Source: a virus (lineage: Duplodnaviria; Heunggongvirae; Uroviricota; Caudoviricetes). Taken from it: 64,000 bases of DNA. Shown piece after piece: positions 10,283 through 62,150 of this stretch. The stretch covers positions 52,360 to 116,359 of IMG/VR virus record IMGVR_UViG_2706795377_000001, one strand, 5' to 3'. A program made the translations under genes and the position numbers. The notes beneath the pieces are model-generated. The model was not told the DNA's origin and searched no databases. It worked only from the letters and a program-made list of their open reading frames with translations. The stretch's first letter is position 1; each line of letters opens with the position of its first letter.

Positions 10283-10327
10283 ATATGGGAAATGTGGGCT
10301 TCTCCTGCATTTCCCATATTTTTTTTG
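10283..10327 (+). terminator. Rho-independent terminator
   Basis: Perfect 12-bp stem ATATGGGAAATG / CATTTCCCATAT followed by TTTTTTTT. Confidence 0.7.
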
Positions 10328-10417
10328 GCTTTTAAAGTAAGCCTAATCCATGAATATTCCCTGTTTTTGTCACTTTATTTTAAGAGGGAGTGATAAAGGA
10401 GAAGTCTAATTCAAGAG

Positions 10418-16618: not shown

Positions 16619-16630
16619 ATGACCACTCCT

Positions 16631-16650
16631 AAATACTTTATTTGGCTTTG
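16631..16650 (-). repeat. Conserved early-region element copy 1
   Basis: Plus-strand AAATACTTTATTTGGCTTTG. Lies about 5 nt upstream of the RBS of the RusA-like gene. A 10-bp inverted partner AGCCAAATAA at 16667-16676 could form a hairpin. Confidence 0.6.
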
Positions 16651-16842
16651 TTTGTAGGAGTGTAAGAGCCAAATAAGAATTAGAAGTACTCACTTGTTCA
16701 ACATAGAAACATTAGCCTTTTTTCCCTGAAATCAAATACATTAATGTAGAAACTGAAACAAATCCAAAAATAAATCCAAGCAATGCAAACGATATAATAA
16801 CGATTAATGCCTCCTTTATAAACTTCACAAAAAGACAACTCC

Positions 16843-19800: not shown

Positions 19801-20250
19801 CTCTTTCAAGATTTTGTGGTCAATCCTTGGTTTGAAGTAAAAGCCTTCAATGTATCCCAAAGAAGCTAATTTGTTAATGTTCTGGCGACCTTTTTCATTC
19901 TTCGCTAAGACAGTGAGGTGAAAATACTTTCTGTCTTTATCTTTCACAAATCTGTCTTCTGTGATATAGAACTCTGCACCATAGATGTGCTTTATATTTT
20001 CTTTTTTCGCAAGTTTATGAACTTTGACAGCAGAGAACACGTTTCCATGCTCTGTTACTGCTACTGCTGTTTGATTTAGAGACGCTACCTTTTTAATTAC
20101 ATCTTCTGGTTTTGACATTCCATCAAGAAGCGAATAAGCTGTGTGCAAATGCAAGTTTACAAACTTATCGTAGGATTTTGCTCCTACATGAAACTTAGAT
20201 GGATTACCACATGAATGACACAATGTTACTCCTCCTCGTTTTGTTTCCAC
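16843..20250 (-). CDS. DNA polymerase III alpha-like replicative polymerase (PHP domain, DnaE/PolC family)
   Basis: 1135 aa. N-terminal PHP motif NLHLHTAYSLLDGMSKPEDVIKKV...VAVTEHGNVF...YGAEFY, with polymerase palm/fingers-like regions further on. Confidence 0.8.
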   Translation of the reverse strand: METKRGGVTLCHSCGNPSKFHVGAKSYDKFVNLHLHTAYSLLDGMSKPEDVIKKVASLNQTAVAVTEHGNVFSAVKVHKLAKKENIKHIYGAEFYITEDRFVKDKDRKYFHLTVLAKNEKGRQNINKLASLGYIEGFYFKPRIDHKILKEYSEGLIVLSGCMASEVQQALAGGKIGDGDIEITENNKANAKRVIKWYRETFGADYYLEVQAHRDYRQQKLNRAIIDLAIELGIEYVATTDSHFVDNEDHELHSIFIQIGTNREAGETYEDTFIMSAKDVYDRLTSFSVEEREIAIRNSLVIADKCDVRLPLSEPIIPHVPIPDEYDSEMAYLKVLINQGWKRRKINQKPNKEYYNKRLMYEFNAITKMGFEGYFLLVDSYVNSVRRRGIARGSSGGSLIAWLLGITDVDPLKFGLYFERFIDVGALELLESGQITRKELKVPDVDSDFGASDREKVVEFIIERYGADKFASIGQFGFIWDKSAIKDVGRVLNIPYQETNQFTQQLGNMTIEYIREAGLFSEWFEKYPKLFEYAEKLAGLPRSFGVHPCGKIVSIKNKDFYTAVASNDGSIVYQADMDDLEDLGLVKVDLLGLKSIDVIYDTLEMIGKDYEYINPDTLNFDDEKVLALFRTGQTDGVFQFESVGMKETLRQVVPDGIEDLAVCNALFRPASMKHIEHYAKRKKGEEEFEYLHPDLEPILSKTYGILVFQEQLIEIAWLANMKNPDKIRKATAKKKMDLMTECKEELFEGLSKRGWNEWQLNTLWEIMIDFASYSFNKSHAVAYAIIAWQMAKQKVYHPIEFMTALLNSKIGKIEEVSHYISECKRMGIKVDVPNINTSAGEFTIKDAGILFGLLAIKGVGEPTVDLIEDIRKFHKKPFESFVQFYNYMVEMSNHIIVDINSEGNKIATLEMLPTDAIINLIKSGAFGSNKDEIIVEFGQMTYTPLKWKPRATVPSKSDFTKAGFIITDEDYKDKELRKQLFNDFKYKEYLKKDEERKLKHLNGFTDKYIGQIEYYEFEAMGTYLTMSPFDSYMKYLKDFYTYENGTDKVLVVGTIIGKDVKKSSRGGQHAKLQVLTPYGVVQVRAYSTQYSEYKNLLNKGETIVVLAKRNKDEAIISKLKTFDEWKQIIDRKRVKK

Positions 20251-20534
20251 TCTTTATACATCTTGATTACTTCATTTCTCGAACTGTTGTGACTACGAAG
20301 TATAAATTCCAATAGTTCGGTATCAGTAAAGTCCTCTTCTCGACAATATTTGCAACTTGTCTCCTGCGCCCATTTCGTACCTTTTGGTGTAAATCCATTA
20401 TCTTCTTTACGGAAACCTTCTGCTTTTGCACATTCATCTGAGTCCCACACATTTCCACATTCACATCCCACATGATAACCGCAATCGGGGAATGTCTCTC
20501 CACATTTGTGACACGCGTAAAAATCAACTCCCAT
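20226..20534 (-). CDS. Cys-rich zinc-ribbon hypothetical protein
   Basis: 102 aa with several CxxC/CxC pairs (CHKCGETFPDCGYHVGCECG). Confidence 0.35.
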   Translation of the reverse strand: MGVDFYACHKCGETFPDCGYHVGCECGNVWDSDECAKAEGFRKEDNGFTPKGTKWAQETSCKYCREEDFTDTELLEFILRSHNSSRNEVIKMYKEWKQNEEE

Positions 20535-20546
20535 TCAAATCTCTCC

Positions 20547-21014
20547 CTACAGTAAATTTTTGATTGTAGACTTATCAGTCCTTCTATCTTTCCTTACTCG
20601 AATATTAATCTTTCTGCAATCTATTTTTCTCTGGTTGCCATGATATAATGGCGATTCAATGCCACTTCTTAGGTAAGTAATAAAGTCGATGAGATTTACA
20701 GATAGTTTTTTGCCATTTTTATTTACTGTCGTACAGACATGACCATCGCCATGCTGTCTCCATCGAACCTCTTGGAGTAATGGAATATCCTCTGCATCGA
20801 CTATCACCTTGTAAGGTTTTTCTTCGAATTTCTTATTGTAAACTGACATTTCTGCCTCATCGCCCTTAATGACAAATCTGTTCTTCTTGTATTGGGTTGC
20901 TTGTTCCTCATCCTCTTCTAACAACATATCTCTGTGTTTTGGACACATGTAAACTTCATTAGTTGTTACATAGAAGGCACGATTTTTTACATTACATATA
21001 ACGCAACCTTTCAT
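20547..21014 (-). CDS. Hypothetical protein, possible zinc-finger/HNH-like nuclease
   Basis: 155 aa. N-terminal CVIC...CPKH cluster. Weak HNH-like C-terminal region. The call is uncertain. Confidence 0.3.
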   Translation of the reverse strand: MKGCVICNVKNRAFYVTTNEVYMCPKHRDMLLEEDEEQATQYKKNRFVIKGDEAEMSVYNKKFEEKPYKVIVDAEDIPLLQEVRWRQHGDGHVCTTVNKNGKKLSVNLIDFITYLRSGIESPLYHGNQRKIDCRKINIRVRKDRRTDKSTIKNLL

Positions 21015-21027
21015 GTTTAATCATCCC

Positions 21028-21294
21028 TTATTTTGTTTTTCCTTGAATGGACATTTCTACTGCCTTTCTGATAGCGTTAGTGAACTCTTTCCCATCTTGG
21101 AAGAAACGCCATCTACCAATATGACAGTCACCCTTCCACACTTCGAGTCGATAGGCGTATAGATGAGAGTCATCAGTAGAGCGTTTTAATGCCTCTTTTA
21201 CAACAACATCTTTATCTTCATTTTCAAAAACCACTTCTTCATAGTCTCCAAAGGTATATCTGCTCAATTTGTATACAATACTTTCTGCGCTCAT
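21028..21294 (-). CDS. Hypothetical protein
   Basis: 88 aa ORF with RBS. Confidence 0.4.
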   Translation of the reverse strand: MSAESIVYKLSRYTFGDYEEVVFENEDKDVVVKEALKRSTDDSHLYAYRLEVWKGDCHIGRWRFFQDGKEFTNAIRKAVEMSIQGKTK

Positions 21295-21303
21295 AAGACT
21301 CTC

Positions 21304-21750
21304 CTACTTCAAAATTTCAGTGACAATCTCATTGACCAGTCTATTGTCAGCTTTACCTTTAACATGTAGCATCAGAGTCTTCATTACAGTGCCTTTGTTT
21401 ACAGGTTGCTCATCGCGCTGAATGGATGCAATTGCAAGGTGGACAGTGAGCAGGATTTCATCTCTTGTCATCTGTTCTGGCAAAAACTTCTCGACAAGTT
21501 TCTCAGATGCAAGCAATTCTTCTACTTTGTCGTGATTGTTGGCTTTCTTGAATGCGTCTATTTCTTCACCTATCTGTTTCTTGAACGTTTGAAGAACTTG
21601 TGCTATCTCTTCTTCTGTTAGGTCACGCAACAGGTCTTTTTCTTTCTTCTGAATGTGGTCAATCACCAATCGGATTGTTGCCAGAGTTTGTTTGTCTTTA
21701 CTGCGCATAGCTTCCTTCATTTCATTTTGCAAACGTAGTTTTGTTTTCAA
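21304..21750 (-). CDS. GatB/YqeY-domain protein
   Basis: Start revised to TTG at 21750 (RBS AAGGAGAG at 7-nt spacing). Product MKTKLRLQNEMKEAMRSKDKQTLATIRLVIDHIQKKE...LTEEEIAQVLQ...LASEKLVEKFLPEQMT matches the YqeY architecture. Confidence 0.5.
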   Translation of the reverse strand: MKTKLRLQNEMKEAMRSKDKQTLATIRLVIDHIQKKEKDLLRDLTEEEIAQVLQTFKKQIGEEIDAFKKANNHDKVEELLASEKLVEKFLPEQMTRDEILLTVHLAIASIQRDEQPVNKGTVMKTLMLHVKGKADNRLVNEIVTEILK

Positions 21751-21769
21751 ATTACATCTCTCCTTGTTT

Positions 21770-22339
21770 TTAATAGAACAATCCATATCCAAATTGAACG
21801 TTTAGATTCTCATTCCAGAATCCATTGAGGTAATTGCCCACTTCTTCAAATTTATATGTGAAATCATCAGGCATCGAAAGCGAAATAAACCATAGCAATG
21901 TTTTTGTGAAGTCTTTTGTTCCTTCAAAGTATCCTTCTTCAACTAACACTTCGCTTGGACAACCAAACTCTGCAAAGATTTCCCTTGCTACATCCGAGAT
22001 GGTACTTTCCCCATACTCTGTGCAGATGTGACGTTTGTTTTTGGAAATTCTGTTATTAGGTAATTCAGCATAATTGTCTCCATGATTGAATTGAAGACCT
22101 GTCAGTTTGCAACTTGCTTTATAGGCTTCCTGTAATGACAAAACAGGATAATTTGACTTGATGGTAAAGACTTTATATTGACCATGACCATCGTTTGACC
22201 AGTCACCAATTGGAATCTTGATGATGTGTTGCATGCTTATCTCCCCTATGCATATTTGACTTGTACTTCTTCGAGCGAATCGTTTTGAACAGTAATAATA
22301 AAGTTTTGTGGATACTTCCTGTCCAATTCTTTGAACCAA
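21770..22339 (-). CDS. Hypothetical protein
   Basis: 189 aa ORF. Confidence 0.4.
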   Translation of the reverse strand: MVQRIGQEVSTKLYYYCSKRFARRSTSQICIGEISMQHIIKIPIGDWSNDGHGQYKVFTIKSNYPVLSLQEAYKASCKLTGLQFNHGDNYAELPNNRISKNKRHICTEYGESTISDVAREIFAEFGCPSEVLVEEGYFEGTKDFTKTLLWFISLSMPDDFTYKFEEVGNYLNGFWNENLNVQFGYGLFY

Positions 22340-22605
22340 TTTAAGTTATAATCCAGAATGTTTACGTTTACCTCAAAAGCAATCCAATCGTATTTAATGA
22401 AATGTTCCTGATACGCTTCCTCAAAGATTTTGACAAGACTCTCCATGGAAGTGTTTTCTATAATAAGATGTGTCACGCCTTCCTTAAAGTTGCAGTTAGG
22501 AACATTTACGATGTCAAGAATTACAATTGAAGTGTTCTTTATTTGGTTGTTGATTAATTTTTCTAAAGCAACTGACTTCCCTGCTTTGCCTTCAATAATA
22601 ATCAT
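22246..22605 (-). CDS. Hypothetical protein
   Basis: 119 aa ORF. Its 5' end overlaps the next gene, so the true start may be internal. Confidence 0.35.
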   Translation of the reverse strand: MIIIEGKAGKSVALEKLINNQIKNTSIVILDIVNVPNCNFKEGVTHLIIENTSMESLVKIFEEAYQEHFIKYDWIAFEVNVNILDYNLNWFKELDRKYPQNFIITVQNDSLEEVQVKYA

Positions 22606-22777
22606 GTTGATTACTCCTTATCTTTGAATTTTTGTTTGAGTCGTTTATATTCAGCCCATATTTGTAGTACTGCACTTGAGTTGAGTGGCTACATCTATCA
22701 GATTTCTTTCAGCATCTTCGAGTACGCATCGAATAAGTTTTTCTATTCTTGTTTGTTTGCTCATTTTAACCCTCCAG

Positions 22778-23005
22778 CTATTTTCTAACTGTAAGAAACA
22801 GTCTATGTGTCTCACTAAAATCAACTCGCCTAACGTCAAATCCAAAGTCAATAAGTCGTTTTATAATATCGTTAAGCTTTTCTTCTCCAATCTTGTTTAA
22901 AATAGCTATATCACCATCTCCATAAATGCCACAACGCTTGTACGACATTAATGAGCCTAATTCTGCATTGATGTTGTATACAAAATCCCAATAATATCTT
23001 CCCAT
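22778..23005 (-). CDS. Hypothetical protein
   Basis: 75 aa ORF. Confidence 0.3.
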   Translation of the reverse strand: MGRYYWDFVYNINAELGSLMSYKRCGIYGDGDIAILNKIGEEKLNDIIKRLIDFGFDVRRVDFSETHRLFLTVRK

Positions 23006-23239
23006 GTCATTTTAGACCCCCTATTTTAGAGAAATGATGGACTCAACCATATCTCTGACCATTGTAGGGCTTTCGTTTGCATACATGCCATCTGGGGTCA
23101 TTGTGATGTCGATATACATAGTCCTCCTCCATTCTCAATTGAAGTCTAGTTTTATTTAGAAGTTTCATTTTTTAATACCTGTATTTTATTACGTTTTTAA
23201 TGGGTCACTTGCTAAATCCATATTTTGTTCAAAGTTTAT

Positions 23240-23425
23240 CTACATCGAGATTGATAATCTCAACTTATCTTCTTTTCCTGCCTCGGTGATAAACCATTCT
23301 TCAACACCATCGTCTTCGCCATTTAATATTGCATTGTCAATATTACTCACTACTTTATGAATATCAATTTCTTCATTAGATTTTAATTCAATTATCAAAA
23401 CTTTTCTATTCTTCATTAATAACAT
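23240..23425 (-). CDS. Hypothetical protein
   Basis: 61 aa acidic ORF. Confidence 0.3.
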   Translation of the reverse strand: MLLMKNRKVLIIELKSNEEIDIHKVVSNIDNAILNGEDDGVEEWFITEAGKEDKLRLSISM

Positions 23426-23485
23426 CTCCTTTTATATATTATAATTAGGCTCTGGAACTAATTCCCACACCTTACTACTTGCATT

Positions 23486-23752
23486 CTACTGTAATATCTT
23501 GATAGTCATTCTAGGATTTTCGCCAATGAAGTGGCGAACTGGAATTTCATAAGTATCACCAGATTTGTTAAGAACAAAGATTTCTGTACTATAGCATCCT
23601 TGAACCAGATAGAGTCCAGTTAGATTTTCGCCAATATAATCCAACTCCGTCCCCCAAGCTACATACCCACCTTCATTGTATTGCCCATCTTTAATTTCTA
23701 CTGCTGTGTTCAGAAATAATTCTTTATCAAAACCAAATATATTTTTAAACAT
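23486..23752 (-). CDS. Hypothetical protein
   Basis: 88 aa. Two copies of the conserved element lie upstream (23771-23790 and 23823-23847). Confidence 0.4.
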   Translation of the reverse strand: MFKNIFGFDKELFLNTAVEIKDGQYNEGGYVAWGTELDYIGENLTGLYLVQGCYSTEIFVLNKSGDTYEIPVRHFIGENPRMTIKILQ

Positions 23753-23770
23753 TTTATCACCTCATATATT

Positions 23771-23790
23771 TAGTACTTTATTTAGCTCTT
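23771..23790 (-). repeat. Conserved element copy 2 (TTTAGCTC variant)
   Basis: Plus-strand TAGTACTTTATTTAGCTCTT. Confidence 0.55.
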
Positions 23791-23822
23791 ATTTCTTAGA
23801 CCGTCTTACATAATTATATTAT

Positions 23823-23847
23823 AATACTTTATTTGGCTTTAGTCAAT
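23823..23847 (-). repeat. Conserved element copy 3
   Basis: Plus-strand AATACTTTATTTGGCTTTAGTCAAT. Confidence 0.6.
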
Positions 23848-23879
23848 AGAAAAGGAGAGAATTTCTTCTCCCCTTTCAC

Positions 23880-24194
23880 TTACAACTTTGATTCATTTAA
23901 CAGTTCATCTGCATTGTCTTTCATATATTGAGAAACCTTTTTGTATCCATCAGAGGTCATGTCCTCAGAGAATCCTCTGTATTTGCATCTGGCGGGAGTT
24001 ACAGCTTTGGTTTCTGTATCAAATATTAAAGTCCAACCAAACATATGCAGTGTTGTATTTATAAACCATAGCAATCCAGTTTTATGGAATTCTTCCCAGC
24101 TCTTATGTTTAATCATTGACATGCGATGATTCCTCCATATAATATTTTCTGTAAAGTACTTTATAAAGCTGTTCTCTACCAACAACATCGCCAT
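23880..24194 (-). CDS. Hypothetical protein
   Basis: 104 aa ORF. Confidence 0.4.
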   Translation of the reverse strand: MAMLLVENSFIKYFTENIIWRNHRMSMIKHKSWEEFHKTGLLWFINTTLHMFGWTLIFDTETKAVTPARCKYRGFSEDMTSDGYKKVSQYMKDNADELLNESKL

Positions 24195-24242
24195 CAGCTT
24201 GGAACCCCATCCAAAGCAGGCTTGAAGATAATAAAATTTTTG

Positions 24243-24470
24243 TTATTGCTCTTGTGACAATACCAACCCATAATTAATTGTGCTGACCTCTTTTGTGGCT
24301 ATAGTTGCTAATGCCAACAAAGCTGTAGATTTTGCTTGCATTAATTGATTATATGAGTCCCACGTTACATAATCTTTCCTGTTTGCTCTTCTTTCTAAAA
24401 CATCAATGCTATCATTTAGCTCTTCTATATGTTCAATGATTTCTTCTGTGACTTCTTCTTTCATATTCAT
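24243..24470 (-). CDS. Hypothetical protein
   Basis: 75 aa ORF. Confidence 0.35.
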   Translation of the reverse strand: MNMKEEVTEEIIEHIEELNDSIDVLERRANRKDYVTWDSYNQLMQAKSTALLALATIATKEVSTINYGLVLSQEQ

Positions 24471-24500
24471 TATATCGCCCCTTAAACATCATTCTCATTA

Positions 24501-24743
24501 TCAAAATATCCTCAACACATCACAACCATCAACCACATAAACTCTCCCCCTTCCGTCAACGGAAAGGTCTTTCTCAAAAACCAATAGGCAAGTATCGCCA
24601 AGTCTTTGTTTAGTCCAAACATAGAATGAATCTCCTTGTTTGTACTTTCTCATGCCTTGACCATCGGTGTACAGCTTAACTCTTCCCTTGCTGTCCACCT
24701 TGCTAAGAACATCGTCAATCGTGCAATATTTCATAGTTGCCAC
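24501..24743 (-). CDS. Hypothetical protein
   Basis: 80 aa ORF. Confidence 0.35.
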   Translation of the reverse strand: MATMKYCTIDDVLSKVDSKGRVKLYTDGQGMRKYKQGDSFYVWTKQRLGDTCLLVFEKDLSVDGRGRVYVVDGCDVLRIF

Positions 24744-24934
24744 TTCCCTCGACTAACCAACTCGTTGTACATTGCGTCAAGATGCTTTTTGGACAGATTG
24801 TTTTCCTCTACCCAACGGTTCCATTCAAGCCTTGCCCGAATCCTGTCCATTTGTTTCTTGCTACTCTCCAACCTAGTTAGTTCATCGAACTTTGCAAGTT
24901 GCTCTTCTGTAAAAAGCTTACCCTGTTCGTCCAT
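24731..24934 (-). CDS. Hypothetical protein
   Basis: 67 aa ORF. Confidence 0.35.
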   Translation of the reverse strand: MDEQGKLFTEEQLAKFDELTRLESSKKQMDRIRARLEWNRWVEENNLSKKHLDAMYNELVSRGKWQL

Positions 24935-25442
24935 AGTGAATCGCCCTCGCTTCGTTCAAGCCATTACGTGCAAGGTCATCAACCATTTCGTTATAGTAGA
25001 TGCCATCATGACCCTTGATTTTTTCGAATTTTACCCATAGCCCTTTGCCCTCAACAACTTCAAGCAGTTCTTCCCATAGGTCTTGATTTGCTACAGGTTG
25101 CTTCTTGGAGTTTTTCCATCCATTGCTTCGCCAATTATCATACCAGCGTTGCTTCATGCAATTGATAAGATAAGCAGAATCAGCGAAAACGACAATATTG
25201 ATATTAGTGTTTTTAATTCGCTTCAAACCTTCGATGCAAGCCTTCATTTCTTCACGCTGATTAGTTGTCTCAGTATGACTGCCAAAGCCAGTTAGCATAT
25301 ACTTGTCATCACAATACTTTATATCAAGGTCTGCACCTTCAAAGTTTCCGTAAAGGAGGACATAGCCATGTCCTCCCAGACCCTTTTCTACACCATTATT
25401 CACCGATGAGCCATCTGTCCAGAGATGTATTTCTTTAGGCAT
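24918..25442 (-). CDS. rnhA: Ribonuclease HI
   Basis: 174 aa. HLWTDGSS...E...D motifs of RNase H type 1. C-terminal IKGHDGIYYNEMVDDLARNG. Confidence 0.75.
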   Translation of the reverse strand: MPKEIHLWTDGSSVNNGVEKGLGGHGYVLLYGNFEGADLDIKYCDDKYMLTGFGSHTETTNQREEMKACIEGLKRIKNTNINIVVFADSAYLINCMKQRWYDNWRSNGWKNSKKQPVANQDLWEELLEVVEGKGLWVKFEKIKGHDGIYYNEMVDDLARNGLNEARAIHYGRTG

Positions 25443-25454
25443 ACAAACCCTCCT

Positions 25455-25655
25455 TTAAGCCATGAAATATCCTTGCTCTTGAATTTTTGTCCACTCGTCA
25501 ACTGTCCAAACTTTTTGGTATGTTTCAACTTGACCATAACAATTCGCGGTCAATACAACTTTTACGAACTGTTTGTCTGGAAATTTGTCAGTCCAATCTT
25601 CTGTATAAGGCTCCACGAAAGTTACATTTGCGATGTAGTGTTCCAATAGGTTCAT
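25455..25655 (-). CDS. Hypothetical protein
   Basis: 66 aa ORF. Confidence 0.35.
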   Translation of the reverse strand: MNLLEHYIANVTFVEPYTEDWTDKFPDKQFVKVVLTANCYGQVETYQKVWTVDEWTKIQEQGYFMA

Positions 25656-26662
25656 ACCACACCATCCTTCAAGAAGTCAGGCAAATCCACATAAGACTTA
25701 CCTTCAATCGGCTTGATTTTTCCTGTAGCAACAGCACGTTTCAAGATATCAACAAAATTCGGATTATATCTCTTAATCGCTTCTGGATAGTTCTCAATCG
25801 CAAATTCTCGAAACCAACCAGAGCAAAGAGTTGTACAAATGCGCTTTAATGCATTCTTATACATTTCAAAATGATTTGTATGATTTTCTCCATACTGAGG
25901 TACGATATAGCGTTCAAGTGCAATTACATAAGCTTCTTCTTGCACAGCCTGTACTTGCATTTCATATGGAAGTGCAAAGAACATATCTAATGAACACCAA
26001 GCCATTGTAGGGTCTGGTTGCATCTTCTTGTACACTGGCTCATCGTTGTGTGCCATCACTTCGTGAATATCATCATGTACAAAATAATGAGGGACATTTA
26101 ATTTGGAACTAAAGAAGTCTTCTGTGGTCACATTAAGCTTTGGAGTTCTTTGCTTGTAGCGATTTTTGGCTTCTTGTGAGCGAAGTGCAAAATATTCATG
26201 CATACGTTCGTCTGCCTTAAAGTTTTTGCCTAACATAGATTTAATGATATGATAATCCTCAATATTTTTTTCAAAGTGTACTGGATAAATCAAGTGTGAC
26301 CTCTTTGTAAACATAAGGTAAGGCAGATTCATTGTAGACATCCATTCACCCATACCGCCAACATTCAAGTAATCACATACAAATGATTTATTATCCAAAA
26401 GCCATTTTGCAGATGTTCCTTCAAATGCGATTTCAATTTCATAAATTTTTCTTTGGTCACTATCTTCTCGAAAAATTACTGCTCTATACTTGTTTTCTTT
26501 GGTAGGAACTAGAGAGATAATATTTTTTGCATACTGATTACTCCAATCTACAAACTCGTCCCAAGACATGATTACATCATAATCAGACTTATTGTATCGT
26601 TCAACATTCTTTTTTGTAGGTTTCAAATTTAACAACAACGCTTTTGAGCCTATCACTATCAT
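25652..26662 (-). CDS. Hypothetical protein (336 aa)
   Basis: Long ORF with no recognisable motif. Confidence 0.45.
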   Translation of the reverse strand: MIVIGSKALLLNLKPTKKNVERYNKSDYDVIMSWDEFVDWSNQYAKNIISLVPTKENKYRAVIFREDSDQRKIYEIEIAFEGTSAKWLLDNKSFVCDYLNVGGMGEWMSTMNLPYLMFTKRSHLIYPVHFEKNIEDYHIIKSMLGKNFKADERMHEYFALRSQEAKNRYKQRTPKLNVTTEDFFSSKLNVPHYFVHDDIHEVMAHNDEPVYKKMQPDPTMAWCSLDMFFALPYEMQVQAVQEEAYVIALERYIVPQYGENHTNHFEMYKNALKRICTTLCSGWFREFAIENYPEAIKRYNPNFVDILKRAVATGKIKPIEGKSYVDLPDFLKDGVV

Positions 26663-26706
26663 GCTAAACTCCTCCTTGACGTTCAGTAATTTATTATGTT
26701 CTGATA

Positions 26707-26994
26707 TTAGTCTTCCTCGTAATAGCTACTACTATATTCCTCTTCCTCGTAATAGCTACTACTATACTCTTCTTCTTCATAAGAGTCTTCTGCACAAAAC
26801 TCACTTACAATACTGTACAGATTGACTACTAGAGGGATGTTGGAATCACGGAAATATTCTTGCAATTTGGCAACTCGACCTTCAATTGCATTTTCCATTT
26901 CATCGTATGTCATGTGCGAGTTCTGTCCGCAATACTCCCGAATGCTTTCTAATTGCTTTTGTGCTTCAATTAGTTTATTCATATCCATTTTCAA
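26707..26994 (-). CDS. Acidic hypothetical protein with tandem (E/Y/S) repeat
   Basis: 95 aa. Its C-terminus is encoded by a 2x30-bp tandem DNA repeat (26711-26770) giving ...EEEEYSSSYYEEEEYSSSYYEED. Confidence 0.35.
   Translation of the reverse strand: MKMDMNKLIEAQKQLESIREYCGQNSHMTYDEMENAIEGRVAKLQEYFRDSNIPLVVNLYSIVSEFCAEDSYEEEEYSSSYYEEEEYSSSYYEED
26711..26770. repeat. 2 x 30-bp tandem direct repeat inside a coding region
   Basis: TCTTCCTCGTAATAGCTACTACTATATTCC followed by TCTTCCTCGTAATAGCTACTACTATACTCT. Confidence 0.6.
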
Positions 26995-27029
26995 ATTCCT
27001 CCAATTATTTTTTTCTTATTTTCTAATGA

Positions 27030-27398
27030 TTAAAAAGTAGCCCATTTACCGCGAACTATTTCATCGAACAAGATTGAATCTATCAAAGTACTATAGTCTG
27101 CAAAACTTCCACCATAGTAGCAACGAACTGTTTTCCCTTCTCCAATTAGACGTAGAGCTGTTGGAAAATCTATTTCTAGTTCTTTTAGCGTCCACTTCGC
27201 TTCAATTATCTCTTTGGTGAGTGGTAAAGGTTTTCCGATGTATTTTCCTGAAAGGCTGTCACGCCTTACAACGATTGAGCCATTTCTCTTTTTGGTTACT
27301 ATAGTTTTACGAAGTGATTCTTCTGTAATTGCTGATTGCCCTATCGCGATTTTCTCTATCATTTCAAATGTGCTTAACAATCCTTGTTCTTTTTCCAT
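27030..27398 (-). CDS. Hypothetical protein
   Basis: 122 aa ORF. Confidence 0.4.
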   Translation of the reverse strand: MEKEQGLLSTFEMIEKIAIGQSAITEESLRKTIVTKKRNGSIVVRRDSLSGKYIGKPLPLTKEIIEAKWTLKELEIDFPTALRLIGEGKTVRCYYGGSFADYSTLIDSILFDEIVRGKWATF

Positions 27399-27431
27399 TT
27401 TATAATCCTCCGATAATTTATTTGTCTTTTA

Positions 27432-27635
27432 TTAATTTATTCTTTCAAGAAGCTTTAATACTCTGCCCTTAACAAAAGCAATAGCTTTCTTTTCATCGTC
27501 TTTAAACGCTTCTCTGATACAACTCAATGCCTTCTCAAGCTGTTCTATTGAAATTCCTTCGGTATCTCGATTATGCACTAAAATAGTAATATAAGCTAAT
27601 AGGTCAACAAGTTCTTTCTTTGACAGTGGCTTCAT
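27432..27635 (-). CDS. Hypothetical protein
   Basis: 67 aa ORF. Confidence 0.35.
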   Translation of the reverse strand: MKPLSKKELVDLLAYITILVHNRDTEGISIEQLEKALSCIREAFKDDEKKAIAFVKGRVLKLLERIN

Positions 27636-27937
27636 ATAACAACATCTACCTTTCTGTAGAAGATATGCTCCACATAAGTTTGATTGTTGCCAAACATCAA
27701 TGTGCCAATAAATTTATAGTCCTCTATCTTATCAGCATCCTCGCCAGTACAAACTGCAATGAACTCATAAGGTTCAATACCTTTAACTAACGTGTTCACT
27801 ATTGCGTAAATAACTGGTTTGCCTCGTTGCAATTTAATTGAAAGAATTTTTGCTCCTACTGGAAGGTAGATAATCTCGTTGGATTCAAATGGATATTTAA
27901 ATATTTTTTTCATCTCGTAATTCCTCCATAAGTGCAT
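27632..27937 (-). CDS. Hypothetical protein
   Basis: 101 aa ORF. Confidence 0.35.
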   Translation of the reverse strand: MHLWRNYEMKKIFKYPFESNEIIYLPVGAKILSIKLQRGKPVIYAIVNTLVKGIEPYEFIAVCTGEDADKIEDYKFIGTLMFGNNQTYVEHIFYRKVDVVI

Positions 27938-28496
27938 TATATATTGTCAGGAAAGGAATCTTAGACTCTCCTGCATTGTAACCTACAGTCAAATCTACAA
28001 ACACTTTTATATGTTCTACATTTGGGATGTCCCCACGTTTCATCAACTGCTCCATCTCGTTGATGAGCATTGTGTTATCAATAAGTTTAACCAATTTGTA
28101 GTCTTCTTCTGTTGGTTTTGGTAAGCCAGCCACTTCCCAAATAACAGTCATAATGCGGTCTTCCACTTCTTTGTATTGAGGAATGTTTTGTTTTACTGGT
28201 TTAGCCAAATCATTAACAACACTCTCGCTTCCATCATGCAACAAGCAATAGAGTTGTTGAAGCGTAGAATATCCAAGTTTTCGTGCAATACGCGCACACA
28301 AGATAGAATGTTCTCCTACGCAATAGAATCTGTCACCATGACCAGTGAATCGGCAGATATTTGCAAGTGAATGCGCAATATCTTGGATAGTGATATCTTC
28401 TGGTCTTGGGTCAAGGACATAAAAGTATCGTCCAGAATTTACTTGAATATAATCGCCTACACGTTCTTGTTCATAAGTTGTCATACTATTGTTCAT
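27897..28496 (-). CDS. HD-domain phosphohydrolase (YfbR-like 5'-deoxynucleotidase?)
   Basis: 199 aa. HD motif elements IAHSLANICRF..GH...VGEHS...LLHDGSES. Confidence 0.55.
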   Translation of the reverse strand: MNNSMTTYEQERVGDYIQVNSGRYFYVLDPRPEDITIQDIAHSLANICRFTGHGDRFYCVGEHSILCARIARKLGYSTLQQLYCLLHDGSESVVNDLAKPVKQNIPQYKEVEDRIMTVIWEVAGLPKPTEEDYKLVKLIDNTMLINEMEQLMKRGDIPNVEHIKVFVDLTVGYNAGESKIPFLTIYNALMEELRDEKNI

Positions 28497-28773
28497 CCTT
28501 TATAAAGAAGATTTTTTTGATAATTTCTTCACCAGTAAGGTTGTTGTCGTCCAGCTTTTCGACAATAAAAATGAAAATGAATATAGCAATACCAATTACG
28601 CAAACAACCACGTTTATTGTTGGCACAATGAGAATCAGAAAAAAGAATACCCACCAATCCTCAACTAGACCTCTTATGTGCCCATAGGTGTATCTCTCGT
28701 CAAGCTGAAACAAGATGCACATTATAAAAAACGTTATTGCTATAGAAAGAATCCAAATTATCATGAATGTCAC
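28486..28773 (-). CDS. Small membrane protein
   Basis: 95 aa with three hydrophobic helices. Confidence 0.35.
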   Translation of the reverse strand: MTFMIIWILSIAITFFIMCILFQLDERYTYGHIRGLVEDWWVFFFLILIVPTINVVVCVIGIAIFIFIFIVEKLDDNNLTGEEIIKKIFFIKDEQ

Positions 28774-28873
28774 TTCTCCACCTGCTTATATTTTATATAG
28801 CTTTCAATATCATTTTTACTGCTTCTGCCCACTTATAACCCTGACCATTCATCCATGTTGTGCTAATTTCTTA

Positions 28874-29098
28874 TTACTCAATTCCTCTTTTTAAAAATAT
28901 TTCTTCCATTGCGGAATCGAAATCAGCACCTTGTTTGATTTTTTTTGCCAATTTCACAGAGTCTTCTGCACCGTCAGTATAGCCTAGAAAGTAGCTTTCT
29001 GATAAAGCATTCGCAATTAACTCCATTTGTCTTTTGTCATTAAACCCCTTAAAACTAACTCTCAATTTTCTATCAACAATATCCACCTTTATTTCCAA
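28874..29098 (-). CDS. Hypothetical protein
   Basis: The ORF-track start (TTG 29113) sits inside the conserved element. The TTG at 29098 has RBS GGAGGTG at 6-nt spacing. Confidence 0.35.
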   Translation of the reverse strand: MEIKVDIVDRKLRVSFKGFNDKRQMELIANALSESYFLGYTDGAEDSVKLAKKIKQGADFDSAMEEIFLKRGIE

Positions 29099-29111
29099 TT
29101 TAAACACCTCC

Positions 29112-29133
29112 AAAGTACTTTATTTGGCTTTAG
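29112..29133 (-). repeat. Conserved element copy 4
   Basis: Plus-strand AAAGTACTTTATTTGGCTTTAG. It abuts the RBS GGAGGTG. Confidence 0.6.
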
Positions 29134-29816
29134 TAAAGAGCGACTAGAGATTTGCAGATATGTTTCTTTTTCAACTTGATGTGGAACAACTTCCACCCTT
29201 CTTGTTTTAGATGAAGATTTTGTTCAGATATAAGAGCTTTAATTTCTCTCTTTCGTCTCACTCCACCTCCCCTTCCGATATGTAGAAGGCTTTCACAAGC
29301 TTTAACTGATTCTCTTACCCTGCGTTCAATGTCAAGTATTTTAGCCGTTTGCACTCTTTCTTTTTCTTCAATTCTTCTAAGATGCTTTAAGTATAATTTA
29401 ATCAGGCTATTTTTGTCAATATCTTTATGTACTTTATTTAGCTTTGGTGTTCTTGCTTTAAAATATCTGTTAACAGTAACAACTGTCTTTAAGTCGGGAG
29501 ATAGGTAAAATGCAATTTGATTATATGCATATAACACGTTAATTCGCCCCTCATACGAAATAATGCAACTAATACGTACAGCTTTAGACAACATTTCTTT
29601 GACCATTCTCGTAGCTATAACCATATCTTTCACTTTAAAATGCTGTTTCATTCTTTTATACGCATGGTTAGACAATTTAATGCCTTTGACATAGAGATTT
29701 TTCTTAATCTCTTCTTGCTTAATCATTTCAATCATTTCTTTAACATGAAGATTGTATGCCTTTTCGTTTCTAAATTGTCTTTTTACATAACGATAGTTTT
29801 CTGCGTTTTTATCCAT
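29130..29816 (-). CDS. Basic hypothetical protein
   Basis: 228 aa, rich in K and R. Confidence 0.4.
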   Translation of the reverse strand: MDKNAENYRYVKRQFRNEKAYNLHVKEMIEMIKQEEIKKNLYVKGIKLSNHAYKRMKQHFKVKDMVIATRMVKEMLSKAVRISCIISYEGRINVLYAYNQIAFYLSPDLKTVVTVNRYFKARTPKLNKVHKDIDKNSLIKLYLKHLRRIEEKERVQTAKILDIERRVRESVKACESLLHIGRGGGVRRKREIKALISEQNLHLKQEGWKLFHIKLKKKHICKSLVALY

Positions 29817-29871
29817 TCCTACTCCCTCCTATTCCCTCCTATTTATATCGTCTTCTTTGTACTCATATTAT

Positions 29872-29897
29872 AGTACTTTATTTAGGTCTTGTCAATC
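29872..29897 (-). repeat. Conserved element copy 5 (variant)
   Basis: Plus-strand TAGTACTTTATTTAGGTCTTGTCAAT. Confidence 0.55.
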
Positions 29898-29932
29898 AAA
29901 AAGCAGAGGATTTTTCCTCTGCTTTGAAGGCT

Positions 29933-30472
29933 TTATTCTATCTCTATCCCTACCGTCTTTTCATAGATGACTGTAGAAAATGTGTATTCATTCCTCTCAT
30001 TGGCTGGAACAACCCCTTCTTCTCCTATAGGGTAGCCTACAGGCTCCCATTCATTCCAATTCACCTTTGGAAAGTAAACATTAGCGTCTTTAAAGGAAGC
30101 ATGAATATGACTTACTATAAGACTATCGCAATAAGACAAGAACTCTTCATATATCTGTCCGCCACCAATAATAAACATTTTTTTGTCATTTTGTTGTTTC
30201 AAAAAATCAAGAACGTCATCAGATGAGTGCATTATATAACAATTCGCACATTTAGGAATAGGATAGTTTTTATTCCTAGTTAAGATGATGTTGATTCTAT
30301 TAGGTAACAAACCCCCTATACTTTCAAACGTTTTGCTTCCCATGACAACAATGTGTCCCTCAGTAACTAAACGAAAGTACTCAAGGTCATCTTTCAATTT
30401 GCACAGAAGCTTATCGTCTTTACCTATGGCATTGTTGGAATCCATAGCAGTAATAGCAATCATATTCTTCAT
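29933..30472 (-). CDS. dfrA: Dihydrofolate reductase
   Basis: 179 aa. MIAITAMDSNNAIGKDDKL...IVVMGSKTFESIGG..LPNRINIILTR...FIIGGGQIYEEF matches DHFR family motifs. Start overlaps the thyA stop. Confidence 0.8.
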   Translation of the reverse strand: MKNMIAITAMDSNNAIGKDDKLLCKLKDDLEYFRLVTEGHIVVMGSKTFESIGGLLPNRINIILTRNKNYPIPKCANCYIMHSSDDVLDFLKQQNDKKMFIIGGGQIYEEFLSYCDSLIVSHIHASFKDANVYFPKVNWNEWEPVGYPIGEEGVVPANERNEYTFSTVIYEKTVGIEIE

Positions 30473-31341
30473 CAGATTGCCACCTCCATTTTTATAGATG
30501 GGTGATGTTGGTAATTGACTAGCTCAAAATCCTCAATCTTGAAATCGTCAAAATTCTTAACATCTGGATTTATGTTAAGGATTGGTGCATCATATGGTTC
30601 CAAAAGGATTTGCTGGCTTAAAGGCTCGATGTGACGTTCATATATATGTACATCATTGATGTTGAAAGTTAATGTACCCATTTCGTAGCCTGTTACTTGT
30701 GCAATCATTCGTTGCAAAACATAATACTGGAACACATTGAATGGCTGTCCCAAGGCTACGTCATTGGAGCGAACACCAACAATTAGATGAAGTTTTCCTT
30801 CCTTGACAAGCCATTGGTTATGCCATACGCAAGGATACAGAGCCATATCGTGTAGGTCATCAATATTCCAAAGTGAAATTACATGACGACGAGATGCAGG
30901 ATTTGTTTTCAGACCATGAATTAAATTATGAATTTGATTAGTAAATCCAAAAATTGATAATGGACAATCTGTTATTGGTACAGTGTCACCTAAGAAAATT
31001 GCTTTTCCAAGCTGATATCCATAAGCTTTACCAATCGTCCCATCTTCTCTTGTCCACGCTTCCCAAATCTTCACATTGTTCTCTCGAAGATAGGACACAT
31101 TACTTGTACGCTTCACATAGAACCACAACAGTTCATAAATAGCAGACTTCCAAGCCACGCGTTTTGTAGTCAGGATTGGAACCTCAGAATTGTCAAATAT
31201 TAATTGTTCAGAAATGGTACTCTTTGTATAGGCAGGAGTGCCATCATCCCAAACAGTACGAACCTGTTGGTCTTTATCCCAAATTCCATTTTTAAGGATT
31301 TTAGAAACTAATCTAGCGTAAACTACATCATAATTACTCAT
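30472..31341 (-). CDS. thyA: Thymidylate synthase (ThyA)
   Basis: 289 aa. Conserved ThyA blocks including the active-site region ALYPCVWHNQW and the C-terminal segment LTFNINDVHIYERH. Confidence 0.85.
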   Translation of the reverse strand: MSNYDVVYARLVSKILKNGIWDKDQQVRTVWDDGTPAYTKSTISEQLIFDNSEVPILTTKRVAWKSAIYELLWFYVKRTSNVSYLRENNVKIWEAWTREDGTIGKAYGYQLGKAIFLGDTVPITDCPLSIFGFTNQIHNLIHGLKTNPASRRHVISLWNIDDLHDMALYPCVWHNQWLVKEGKLHLIVGVRSNDVALGQPFNVFQYYVLQRMIAQVTGYEMGTLTFNINDVHIYERHIEPLSQQILLEPYDAPILNINPDVKNFDDFKIEDFELVNYQHHPSIKMEVAI

Positions 31342-31344
31342 GGA

Positions 31345-31515
31345 CTATATTCCTTTCATTACAATAAAGCGATATTTTCCTAGCTTAATTACCTTAGAAA
31401 CTTTGATGTACTCATGATTTGAAATGTAGGTCTTCATGCCAACACTTACATTTTGCACTGTGATGCCAATGGCTGTTTTCTTGGAGACAAAGAAACCAAA
31501 TCCACCCTTTCTCAT
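31345..31515 (-). CDS. Small hypothetical protein (56 aa)
   Basis: Not in the ORF track. ATG at 31515 has RBS AAGGAGTG at 7-nt spacing. Its stop lies 3 nt before the thyA ATG. Encodes MRKGGFGFFVSKKTAIGITVQNVSVGMKTYISNHEYIKVSKVIKLGKYRFIVMKGI. It is preceded by a hairpin and the conserved element. Confidence 0.35.
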   Translation of the reverse strand: MRKGGFGFFVSKKTAIGITVQNVSVGMKTYISNHEYIKVSKVIKLGKYRFIVMKGI

Positions 31516-31566
31516 TTTCAACACTCCTTAGTTTGAAGCCCACCCACTTGTATGGATGGGCTTGAT

Positions 31567-31587
31567 AGTTATTTATTTGGCTTTACT
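31567..31587 (-). repeat. Conserved element copy 6
   Basis: Plus-strand AGTTATTTATTTGGCTTTACT. On the minus strand it is followed by a hairpin (31536-31563) and the RBS of the small ORF upstream of thyA. Confidence 0.55.
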
Positions 31588-32413
31588 ACTTATTAGTAAC
31601 TACAGCACTTACACCTTTAACTTCTACCCAGCCATGAGCGATACGCGCTTCCATTTCCATCTTTTTCAAGAGTTCTGGCGTGATGGATTGTTGCACTAAA
31701 CGATTGGATTCTGCCTGACCTTTTGCTTCTGCAATTGTGGCTTGTGCCTTACCTTCTGCTTCAATCTTCTGTTTCTCAGCAATTTCTTGAGCCTTTTGTT
31801 TTTCGATTTTCAAAGCTTCAAGTTGTTGTTGTGCGTCAACTACAGCTTGAATTGCTTTAGCTGTGCTTTCATCAGGAGTTGGTGTGCCAAGTACGAAATC
31901 AGTGACTGTGAAGCCTTGCTTCTTCATGTCTTCTGTAAACACCTTTGAAATATCAACCTTAATTTGCTCTCGGTTTTGGAAGATTTCTAAGATTGTATAT
32001 TTAGATGTAACAGATAGTGCGGCTTCTTTAATGCGAGAAAGAATAAACCCTTGCTCAATTGCTTCTGGTTTTGCGCCCTTAAATTTGTTGAAAATGTTAA
32101 CTACTTGTTCTGGGTCATTCATATAGTTGAATGTCATGTTCATAGTTAAAGGTTTACCATCTTTCGTTGCAAGCTGTACATCTTTGTACTCCACAGTCTC
32201 AAGCGCAACAGGGTATTGGGTTACCATCTTCCAAGGCAAAACAGGATGCATGCCTTGACTAAGTGTTTGGTTTTCAACTCCGCCACTGCGATTATAAACT
32301 ACACCCACATGACCTTGCTTAATCGTTGTCAAAGAAGCTAGACCCATTCCTCCCAAAAATAAAACTCCAATTCCAACTAGTCCTGCTACAATTGTACGTT
32401 TTTTACTCATCAT
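31586..32413 (-). CDS. SPFH/band-7 (prohibitin/flotillin-like) membrane protein
   Basis: 275 aa. N-terminal TM helix, then a PHB-like domain (GHVGVVYNRSGG...) and a C-terminal coiled-coil QQQLEALKIEKQKAQEIAEKQKIEAEGKAQ. Confidence 0.55.
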   Translation of the reverse strand: MMSKKRTIVAGLVGIGVLFLGGMGLASLTTIKQGHVGVVYNRSGGVENQTLSQGMHPVLPWKMVTQYPVALETVEYKDVQLATKDGKPLTMNMTFNYMNDPEQVVNIFNKFKGAKPEAIEQGFILSRIKEAALSVTSKYTILEIFQNREQIKVDISKVFTEDMKKQGFTVTDFVLGTPTPDESTAKAIQAVVDAQQQLEALKIEKQKAQEIAEKQKIEAEGKAQATIAEAKGQAESNRLVQQSITPELLKKMEMEARIAHGWVEVKGVSAVVTNK

Positions 32414-34141: not shown

Positions 34142-34187
34142 ATTCTCCTTTATTGTATGTTTTGTTTAGGAGGGACAGTTCTCTCCT

Positions 34188-34209
34188 AAAGTACTTTATT
34201 TGGCTTTTG
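34188..34209 (-). repeat. Conserved element copy 7
   Basis: Plus-strand AAAGTACTTTATTTGGCTTTTG. Confidence 0.6.
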
Positions 34210-35512: not shown

Positions 35513-35533
35513 CTGTATTTTATTTGGCTCTTG
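35513..35533 (-). repeat. Conserved element copy 8 (variant)
   Basis: Plus-strand CTGTATTTTATTTGGCTCTTG. Directly abuts RBS GTGAGGAA. Confidence 0.5.
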
Positions 35534-35590
35534 ATATGATTTACTTATTAATAACGGGTACAATCTTATAATATCAAAGGTTAAACATAG

Positions 35591-35614
35591 AGTCAATACT
35601 TTATTTGGCTTTGG
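35591..35614 (-). repeat. Conserved element copy 9
   Basis: Plus-strand AGTCAATACTTTATTTGGCTTTGG. Confidence 0.6.
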
Positions 35615-40764: not shown

Positions 40765-40790
40765 TAGTACTTTATTTAGCTCCTGTCAAT
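40765..40790 (-). repeat. Conserved element copy 12 (variant), in divergent promoter region
   Basis: Plus-strand TAGTACTTTATTTAGCTCCTGTCAAT. Lies 85 nt upstream of the first leftward gene and about 160 nt from the RNPP-receptor gene start. Confidence 0.55.
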
Positions 40791-54631: not shown

Positions 54632-54653
54632 TTAATACTTTATTTGGCTTTTG
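54632..54653 (-). repeat. Conserved element copy 13
   Basis: Plus-strand TTAATACTTTATTTGGCTTTTG. Abuts RBS AAGGAGAG. Confidence 0.6.
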
Positions 54654-55220: not shown

Positions 55221-55247
55221 AGTCAATACTTTATTTGGCTTTAGTAG
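55221..55247 (-). repeat. Conserved element copy 14
   Basis: Plus-strand AGTCAATACTTTATTTGGCTTTAGTAG. Lies upstream of gmk. Confidence 0.6.
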
Positions 55248-62104: not shown

Positions 62105-62150
62105 GTTTTTATTCCTCCACTTCGTACTGTAGGAGAGGGAAAGTCCCCTA

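Follow-up and report, generated by a model that had tools for sequence, protein, structure and literature searches.

This stretch of 64,000 nucleotides (called the window below; positions 52,360 to 116,359 of the virus record IMGVR_UViG_2706795377_000001) raises the question of what function is served by a short repeated element that precedes many of its genes and leads, at several junctions, into a stable stem-loop and then into a ribosome-binding site (RBS). The initial annotation likened the stem-loops near 31.5, 62.1, and 63.3 kb to 5'-terminal stem-loops of mRNAs, which would be consistent with initiation at or within the element. The analysis presented here favors another explanation, to which we assign a probability of about one half: the element would be the operator of gp157, a master repressor of the MrpR family, and the hairpins would be gene-specific structures of the sense mRNA, not 5' ends resulting from initiation at the element. 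The sequence is that of Brevibacillus phage Sundance, with 100% identity (NC_028749.1, record positions 52360-116359); Sundance is an SPbeta-like temperate siphovirus of 134 kb with homologues of YonK, YonG, and YomH and a ParA partition protein. From about 15.3 kb on, the window consists mostly of a single long minus-strand block of early, replication, and nucleotide-metabolism genes.

Contexts of the repeated element and the site of initiation

The conserved element AAAGCCAAATAAAGTAYT is an asymmetric repeat of 16 bp (16-18 bp), most copies of which lie in intergenic spacers. It is represented by 12 exact and about 20 near copies; the intergenic ones in the window are all on the gene strand. 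The 13-mer AAAGCCAAATAAA occurs 12 times without mismatch in the window, always on the minus strand and co-oriented with the genes; at up to two mismatches, 33 matches were found, compared with 6.9 expected by chance. The published description of Sundance states that MEME found no repeated motif (PMC4909266), which the repeated 16-mer, with about 20 copies between 16634 and 63350, corrects. A census of the whole genome sorts the copies into three contexts. In class P, the element exactly fills the 17-bp spacer of a consensus sigmaA promoter, TTGACA-[RRAGCYAAATAAAGTAY]-TATAAT, with copies at 23825, 29874, and 40768 in the window; further copies of this class, on the plus strand, are found upstream of gp009, gp012, gp013, and gp014. 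In class U, the element adjoins the 5' side of the -35 box (35597, 55227). Class R is the commonest: here a near-invariant copy, often overlapping the stop codon of the upstream gene, is located 2-10 nt 5' of the Shine-Dalgarno sequence (SD) within operons, and neither a -35 nor a -10 box is present. The following copies are relevant here:

29867-29895, minus strand: class P promoter TTGACA-[AGACCTAAATAAAGTAC]-TATAAT with the element as spacer, 12/12 match
23819-23847, minus strand: class P promoter TTGACT-[AAAGCCAAATAAAGTAT]-TATAAT, located after a terminator; a second copy precedes the RBS at 23774-23789
40768-40783, minus strand: class P copy, TTGACA-[GGAGCTAAATAAAGTAC]-TATAAT, at the head of the gp119 operon
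35568-35612, minus strand: class U, element (35597-35612) directly 5' of TTGACT-17-TATTAT; a second copy precedes the RBS at 35516-35531
55227-55242, minus strand: class U, element directly 5' of TTGACT...TATAAT, upstream of gp137
54636-54651, minus strand: class R without hairpin, exact element, 2 nt, AAGGAG; similar copies at 29116, 37166, 39941, and 51847
62154-62169, minus strand: exact copy AAAGCCAAATAAAGTA, the first bases of which overlap the stop codon of sak4 (gp152); no -35 or -10 box
63335-63350, minus strand: exact copy between gp153 and sak4
34192-34207, minus strand: exact copy downstream of dut (gp106)
31569-31584, minus strand: imperfect copy AAAGCCAAATAAATAA, without the GTAC end, after gp099

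The copies of classes P and U coincide with the best sigmaA matches of the region and were called by the promoter scan, which reported no promoter-like site at the hairpin-bearing copies. In the class P register, the -35/-10 hexamers at the latter are TTATAT/TGTAGG, TAATCT/TTTGAG, AATACA/TTTAGG, and AGTAGT/TATCAA. Of the six positions of TTGACA, their -35 hexamers match 1-3; the -10 hexamers are without A2 and T6 of the consensus, except that of the 31.5-kb copy (TATCAA), in which A2 is present and T6 alone is missing. Because the hairpin-bearing copies possess neither a -35 nor a -10 box, initiation at or within the element, as considered originally, is not supported. The clear promoters hold the element as spacer or 5' of the -35 box, and for these class P and class U sites initiation would fall at least 13 nt beyond the element.

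A phage RNA polymerase of the YonO type was considered as reader of the element and rejected: gp012, annotated as 'exonuclease V', is a RecD2-like helicase (L003 8599-12119 in record coordinates, outside the window). At the position syntenic to SPbeta, no YonO-type RNA polymerase was seen. The annotation of gp013 as 'sigma factor' is a PHROG label only (phrog_5767); the protein has no Pfam sigma domain. To the right of the window, at record positions 116883-116979 (L002 14980-15130), a class P promoter (116964) leads into a hairpin of -24 kcal/mol, and the element recurs between this hairpin and gp153. Only here is it plausible that a genuine promoter gives rise to a transcript with a stem-loop at its 5' end.

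Some further sites concern the element or resemble it. Operon boundaries within the minus-strand block are marked at 23841-23880 and 29895-29935 by compact modules, in which a class P promoter with its embedded putative operator comes immediately after an intrinsic terminator. Within the gp095 coding region, an element copy (29430-29445) precedes TTGACA-18-TATACT (11/12); this site (29390-29445) may be an internal promoter with operator. One near copy of the element, AAAGCCAAAAAAA, is a false positive: it is the complement of the T-tract in a canonical plus-strand terminator after gp056 (10283-10332). A second, unrelated upstream repeat, GTGTGWTTTT-N-TTTACATTAATATATGA, precedes many small genes at the far right of the genome (L002 ~19400-31700, record 121-133 kb) and is absent from the window; possibly it characterizes promoters of another temporal class.

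The element as candidate operator of gp157

The protein gp157 is 28% identical to YopR/MrpR of SPbeta over its full length (322 aa, E = 1e-27) and matches the Pfam domains MrpR_N_CB and MrpR_C_cat with 82.6 and 50.1 bits, the cut-off being 27 for both. In SPbeta, the repeat SPBRE is the binding site of the master repressor MrpR (YopR), as determined by chromatin affinity precipitation sequencing (ChAP-seq), electrophoretic mobility shift assays, and reporter fusions; MrpR has a tyrosine-recombinase fold, relatives of which bind inverted repeats (PMC10516654). We re-derived SPBRE de novo from the ten reported target promoters. The derived motif fills the spacer of TAGACA-17-TATAAT, and three of its copies (the second yonX copy, yopM, and yopV) are located directly before an SD. 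Due to the homology of gp157 and the occurrence of the derived SPBRE in the same two geometries, the Sundance element is most likely the operator of an MrpR-family repressor, i.e. of gp157, and the counterpart of SPBRE. Since the analogous SPBRE is a repressor binding site (PMC10516654), an operator is a better reading of the element than a promoter.

The two systems have several properties in common: an SPbeta-like phage encodes a full-length MrpR-family protein, and an asymmetric repeat of about 15-17 bp, whose many intergenic copies point in the direction of the genes, serves as spacer of sigmaA-type promoters and in some copies stands directly before an RBS. They differ in copy number, which is about three times higher in Sundance, where most copies lie within operons and lack a promoter, and in that no SPbeta copy leads into a hairpin.

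Using Sak4, gp099, Dut, and RusA as queries, a small group of Sundance-like elements was recovered. These are the Paenibacillus alvei plasmid pPAV141, a P. agilis contig of 141 kb, UViG_2690315748 (154 kb), UViG_3300025534_000013, and the two metagenomic fragments L011 and L012, the latter being more distant. A metagenome scan for Sak4 relatives found none, and a pattern-based scan of viral contigs for MrpR relatives gave none either; local tblastn searches on the retrieved loci then detected MrpR homologues. More distant relatives of Dut, gp099, and RusA (L016-L041, L045-L051, L053, L054) are without the element and uninformative. The relatives carry all three classes of the element at orthologous junctions, and each possesses its own genome-wide variant of the 5' half: GATGCCAAAGAAAGTAC, AAGGAGCCGAAGAAAGTAC, or TAAGTGCCAAATAAAGTA (in shorter form GATGCC, AAGGAGCC, and TAAGTGCC). 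Their MrpR homologues occupy the syntenic position and are 51-56% identical to gp157; for Sak4, the corresponding values are 67-74%. That all copies changed in concert and that the repressor diverges fast is what a co-evolution of repressor and operator would predict.

If the element is bound by gp157, its location suggests two modes of action. At copies overlapping sigmaA promoters, the bound repressor would block initiation. At the copies within operons, the most plausible effect would be a stoperator-like block or the nucleation of silencing. Stoperators of cluster A mycobacteriophages are numerous asymmetric repressor sites in short intergenic spaces, whose orientation is tied to the direction of transcription (PMC9283540). 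With those of the L5 gp71 type, the Sundance element shares the number of more than 20 asymmetric sites, the presence of some of them in promoters and of most in short intergenic spaces, and the orientation with transcription. The differences are the host phylum and the fold of the repressor, which is recombinase-like in MrpR and consists of a helix-turn-helix (HTH) plus a stoperator domain in the mycobacteriophages; in Pfam, gp157 matches the MrpR domains only and not the HTH and stoperator domain of the L5 gp71 type, so that the likeness is one of function only. Moreover, no adjoining hairpins have been described for stoperators, and the block of elongation in Sundance is a prediction only.

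The hairpins in Sundance and its relatives

The leaders were folded as RNA in their context, and z-scores were computed relative to dinucleotide shuffles (for the 31.5-kb hairpin, a context of 81 nt and 200 shuffles). The hairpins are:

31536-31563, minus strand: 12-bp GC-rich hairpin AAGCCCATCCAT/GTGGGTGGGCTT with two G·U pairs and the tail TCAAAC; hairpin -19.8, context -22.0 kcal/mol, z = -3.26
62124-62156, minus strand: 13-bp hairpin between sak4 and gp151, followed by the gp151 SD GGAGG; hairpin -19.0, context -23.1 kcal/mol, z = -4.09
63288-63337, minus strand: 21-bp hairpin with four G·U pairs, closed by GTAC/GGTAC, core GAGGGGAAG/CTTTCCCCTC; hairpin -26.6, context -32.6 kcal/mol, z = -3.53
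16621-16691, minus strand: 23-bp hairpin, in which the element (16634-16649) and the rusA SD AGGAG (16626-16630) are opposed to an inverted partial copy of the element; context -25.0 kcal/mol, z = -4.17
34165-34190, minus strand: fifth, weaker hairpin TTTAGGAG.../...CTCCTAAA upstream of the gp105 SD; about -10 (context -10.5) kcal/mol, z = -1.45

All four minus-strand stems proposed initially exist, at or within one base of the positions originally assigned to them. The stem at 31536-31563, described as having 9/10 bp, was counted as 12 bp including the two G·U pairs. At 62124-62156, the perfect 10-bp stem was confirmed and extends to 13 bp; its 5' arm opens with the terminal GTAC of the element. 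At 63295-63330, where a stem of 9 bp had been proposed, the GAGGGGAAG stem stood, and the 3' arm had to be corrected to CTTTCCCCTC with one bulged U. For the copy at 16.6 kb, the annotation had placed the partner on the other side of the element; this partner is the inverted partial copy, AGAGCCAAATAAG on the plus strand (16665-16677), which together with its flank pairs with the element region. These four stems fold better than the shuffled sequences (z between -3.26 and -4.17; at 31.5 kb, 1 of 200 shuffles folds as well), and the fifth case gave a z of -1.45. A scan of the whole window with Rfam 15 returned no match at the gathering threshold; thus, the hairpins fit no curated RNA family.

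In the early block, where about 22 good intergenic copies were counted, five are accompanied by a compact hairpin (-12 kcal/mol or better, within 9 nt). At 400 random positions of the same strand the fraction is 1.75%, a background that is mostly coding sequence, so that the enrichment is overstated and gives weak support only. Only 4-5 of about 22 copies have a hairpin; the majority lead straight into the RBS. Conservation at orthologous junctions is stronger evidence against chance than this enrichment. In three to four related Paenibacillus phage-plasmids, hairpins recur at four junctions, namely before sak4, after sak4, after dut, and before rusA, with differing stem sequences. The stems were compared base by base by means of a script; a MAFFT alignment of the after-sak4 hairpins placed Sundance one column out of register. 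After sak4, the hairpin opens with the GTAC of the element and ends in GTAC in all four close genomes. Three successive base pairs differ in both partners when Sundance is compared with P. agilis (GC, UA, AU versus UA, AU, UA); pPAV141 and UViG_2690315748 have an internal loop and GGAGAGC/GCTCTCC, capped by UUCG or UUAU. In L012, this junction is occupied by a canonical sense terminator, the loop of which contains the element. Before sak4, all four genomes keep GTAC-(N)-GAGGGGAAG...CTTCCCCTY-TG-GTAC, with loops of varying length and sequence. After dut, four genomes have four different stems: one of 14 bp, TTAGGAG/CTCCTAA, GGGGAG-UUCG-CUCCCC, and GGGGAG-GAAA-CUCCCC. The rusA hairpin has a counterpart in pPAV141, where an inverted partial copy is again present and pairs, the sequence differences being compensatory. 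The recurrent architecture postulated initially is real and conserved at three to four junctions; it is heterogeneous, however, and the three original examples do not constitute one class.

The exception is the hairpin at 31.5 kb. In the relatives, a counterpart (AAGCCCA...) is located 3' of the gp099 homologue without an element in front, and its tail is ATTTTT in UViG_3300025534 and TTTTCT in UViG_2690315748, compared with TCAAAC in Sundance. This hairpin is read as terminator-derived, its U-tract having presumably decayed in Sundance.

The strand on which the structures would act can be assessed from the base pairs. Across 16 hairpins, 20 G·U pairs are found on the mRNA strand and four on the opposite strand, the mRNA-strand fold is the more stable one in 12 of 16 cases, and loops of the type UUCG (twice) and GAAA occur on the sense strand only. 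This asymmetry of G·U pairs and tetraloops and the fold stability point to selection on the sense RNA.

Two observations on individual hairpins are added. A 10-codon open reading frame (MSCFPLWYFN*, 63276-63308) with an SD-like GGGAG starts in the loop of the 63.3-kb hairpin and runs through its 3' arm; a leader-peptide mechanism was rejected, as this reading frame is absent from three relatives and is probably fortuitous. In two loci of relatives (L009 17475-17545, L010 18864-18935), the -10 region of a class U promoter is covered by a hairpin with T-tract; read-through transcripts would be terminated by it, and those of the promoter itself would begin within its loop.

Possible roles of the hairpins and rival explanations

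For the junction before sak4, the folds suggest a switch, which involves two further segments:

63261-63299, minus strand: alternative helix between the 3' arm of the hairpin, CCCCTCTGGT (63290-63299), and ACCAAAGGGG (63261-63270), which holds the sak4 SD
63371-63385, minus strand: segment 1, the last codons of gp153 plus the first bases of its stop codon, CCTTCCTTTCGAGTA (TAA 63370-63372), complementary to the 5' arm of the hairpin

When the 5' arm is unavailable, the alternative helix has -16 to -19 kcal/mol in four genomes; the pairing CCCCTT/AAGGGG is also found in L011/L012. In folds of 183 nt, the minimum-energy state pairs segments 1:2 and 3:4, and the probability that the sak4 SD is unpaired amounts to 0.39 in pPAV141 and 0.01 in the three other genomes. 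If a stretch of ribosome size around the gp153 stop is masked, the 2:3 hairpin forms and this probability rises to 0.50-0.56 (pPAV141 0.51). As masking the upstream stop region opens the sak4 SD, a translational coupling of sak4 to gp153 is predicted: with gp153 untranslated, its end would pair with the 5' arm, and the freed 3' arm would occlude the SD; a ribosome finishing gp153 would free the 5' arm, the hairpin would form, and the SD would open. The hairpin would thus be the anti-sequestering arm of a four-segment switch, in which the SD helix is predicted, in silico and for four genomes, to be mutually exclusive with another conserved helix. SD sequestration with translational coupling is known from the coat-replicase and lysis genes of the RNA phage MS2, and alternative helices from ermC-type systems. 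The sak4 junction shares with these the predicted mutually exclusive helices, the competition of a purine-rich decoy arm, an anti-SD arm, and the real SD, and the upstream ribosome that shifts the balance. It differs in that the switch is predicted only, no leader peptide is conserved among the genomes, and the role of segment 1 falls to the end of a full-length upstream gene, at a distance of about 120 nt from the regulated start.

At the other junctions, different roles are indicated. Before rusA, the hairpin directly buries the SD in the folds of two genomes, which would keep RusA low. The hairpins that follow sak4 and dut have only a weak alternative pairing with the SD of the next gene (-3 to -7 kcal/mol); therefore, a role in stability or processing is favored, and these compact hairpins are most likely intercistronic stability or processing determinants. 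They could shield the 3' end of the upstream cistron or, alternatively, a 5' end arising from a cut in the single-stranded A/U-rich element. The true sense terminator after sak4 in L012 is consistent with 3'-end formation at this junction. 5' stem-loops and polypurine elements stabilize mRNAs of Gram-positive bacteria and their phages, examples being the ermC and aprE leaders, the SP82 stabilizer, and the STAB-SD of cryIIIA; to our knowledge, they act only within a few nt of the transcript's 5' end. A stable stem-loop without U-tract just upstream of the RBS and a purine-rich, SD-like 5' arm are features shared with the Sundance hairpins, at which, however, no promoter consensus puts a 5' end and the SD-like run is base-paired. 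A role of the element itself at the RNA level was rejected as a common explanation, as the copies of classes P and U lie upstream of the predicted transcription start.

Explanations in which the hairpins belong to the ends of sense transcripts have to be weighed against these results. The element could be or contain a promoter, read by a phage-modified RNA polymerase or with the help of the 'sigma factor' gp013, and the hairpins could be 5'-terminal stem-loops guarding against a 5' exonuclease. This would agree with the start of the hairpins, which coincides with the 3' end of the element or lies no more than a few nt from it, with the presence of TAAAGT, a weak -10-like hexamer, in the element, with a TTGACA 16-18 nt upstream of the matching GAAAGT before sak4 in relatives, with the PHROG annotation of gp013, and with the class P promoter at record 116964, just outside the window, which is followed by a hairpin at the would-be 5' end of the transcript. 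We consider it quite unlikely, because the hairpin copies have no -35/-10 in the class P register and no promoter call, the clear promoters are organized unlike a self-contained promoter, gp013 is without a Pfam sigma domain, and the homologous element of SPbeta serves as a repressor site. Of the initial assignment, the selected mRNA structure is supported by its conservation, the compensatory changes, the tetraloops, and the G·U asymmetry, and a function in stability, processing, or ribosome entry is reasonable; the 5' ends generated by initiation at the element are not supported. Weak, factor-dependent, or decayed sense terminators or attenuators, which set the polarity of the operon and have no specific link to the element, are a rather unlikely alternative. 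The stems are GC-rich like those of Rho-independent terminators, the 31.5-kb hairpin is homologous to terminator-like hairpins with T-tracts, other Sundance terminators share the purine-rich 5' arm, and L012 has its canonical terminator after sak4. Yet no minus-strand T-tract follows any of the stems (tails GAAGTGG, TTCAATTAAA, CAAAACA, and TCAAAC) and no minus-strand terminator was called there by the terminator scan. After the 62.1-, 63.3-, and 34.2-kb stems, the U-tract is missing in four close genomes, i.e. in Sundance and its three closest relatives, and the downstream sequence is A-rich; compensatory upkeep across this divergence argues against simple decay. The earlier statement that the hairpins are not terminators is thus supported by the missing U-tract and by a scan that flagged only one hairpin, on the opposite strand, and has to be restricted for the 31.5-kb hairpin on account of its homologues.

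Two further models dispense with a function in the sense mRNA. If the hairpins were intrinsic terminators of antisense (plus-strand) transcription, the reverse complement of the element, TACTTTATTTGGCTTT, would serve as U-tract, and the GTAC closure would be explained. On the plus strand, TTTATTTGG immediately follows the hairpins flanking sak4 in Sundance, as do TTTCTTTGG or TTTCATTGG in the relatives; the scan flags 34165-34190 on this strand, and the element is mimicked by the complement of the T-tract of the bona fide plus-strand terminator at 10283-10319. This model deserves to be retained as a rival but is unlikely all the same: in the 44-62 kb block there are no annotated plus-strand genes or promoters upstream, the 62.1- and 63.3-kb hairpins were not called by the scan, and the after-dut hairpins are 2-7 nt away from the T-tract. 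Moreover, the antisense folds are the weaker ones in 12 of 16 cases, contain 4 instead of 20 G·U pairs and no UUCG or GAAA loops, and have large loops before sak4. Alternatively, the inverted repeats could act as DNA, by forming a cruciform or by binding a second dimeric protein that cooperates with the repressor, or they could be relics of palindromic insertions at GTAC. The tyrosine-recombinase fold of MrpR, whose relatives bind inverted repeats, would be compatible with this, as would the partner arm at 16.6 kb, which is an inverted copy of the element, and the fact that removing the hairpin and one GTAC restores the ordinary layout of element and RBS. However, the stems vary between sites and genomes while the pairing is kept, which fits an RNA and not a sequence-specific protein site, and the strand-asymmetric G·U pairs would be mismatches in DNA; a DNA-level function is therefore very improbable.

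Several points weigh against the combination of a gp157 operator and sense-mRNA hairpins that we prefer. The operator role rests on homology and geometry, and the similarity of the element to SPBRE is loose, as only CAAATAA...GTA is common to both, with a register shift of one base. Such a loose similarity is expected if operator and repressor have co-diverged, though it is no proof. The stoperator-like action of the copies within operons is pure inference. The sak4 switch is based on the thermodynamic folding of arbitrary windows, and its segment 1 is coding sequence conserved for protein reasons, whose complementarity could be incidental. With 4-5 related genomes, the orthologous hairpins of which share ancestry, few independent events stand behind the counts of G·U pairs and tetraloops. 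Finally, the GTAC...GTAC closure makes the stem adjoin the element and places a U-rich tract right after the stem in the antisense RNA, a layout for which the sense-RNA model has no obvious need.

With respect to known systems, the element is most likely a further case of an SPBRE/MrpR operator in a stoperator-like layout, and the hairpins are known kinds of intercistronic structures for translation or stability; no new class of mechanism is opened. A more specific proposal is tentative: Sundance-like phage-plasmids of Firmicutes may use the recombinase-fold MrpR in the manner of a stoperator system, with dozens of co-oriented operators silencing the elongation of early operons, convergent with mycobacteriophage L5 and its unrelated protein, and the GTAC of the operator may double as the foot of conserved mRNA hairpins that gate or couple the translation of sak4 and rusA. 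Two predictions follow, namely that gp157 binds the 16-mer and that translation of Sak4 depends on translation of gp153. If the preferred reading is true, two layers of control are separated that look like one motif by eye. The first layer would be a genome-wide network of repressor sites, which would extend the MrpR/SPBRE system of SPbeta to another host genus and to a stoperator-like layout; the second would consist of a few conserved intercistronic RNA structures that set the expression of single genes of recombination and nucleotide metabolism.

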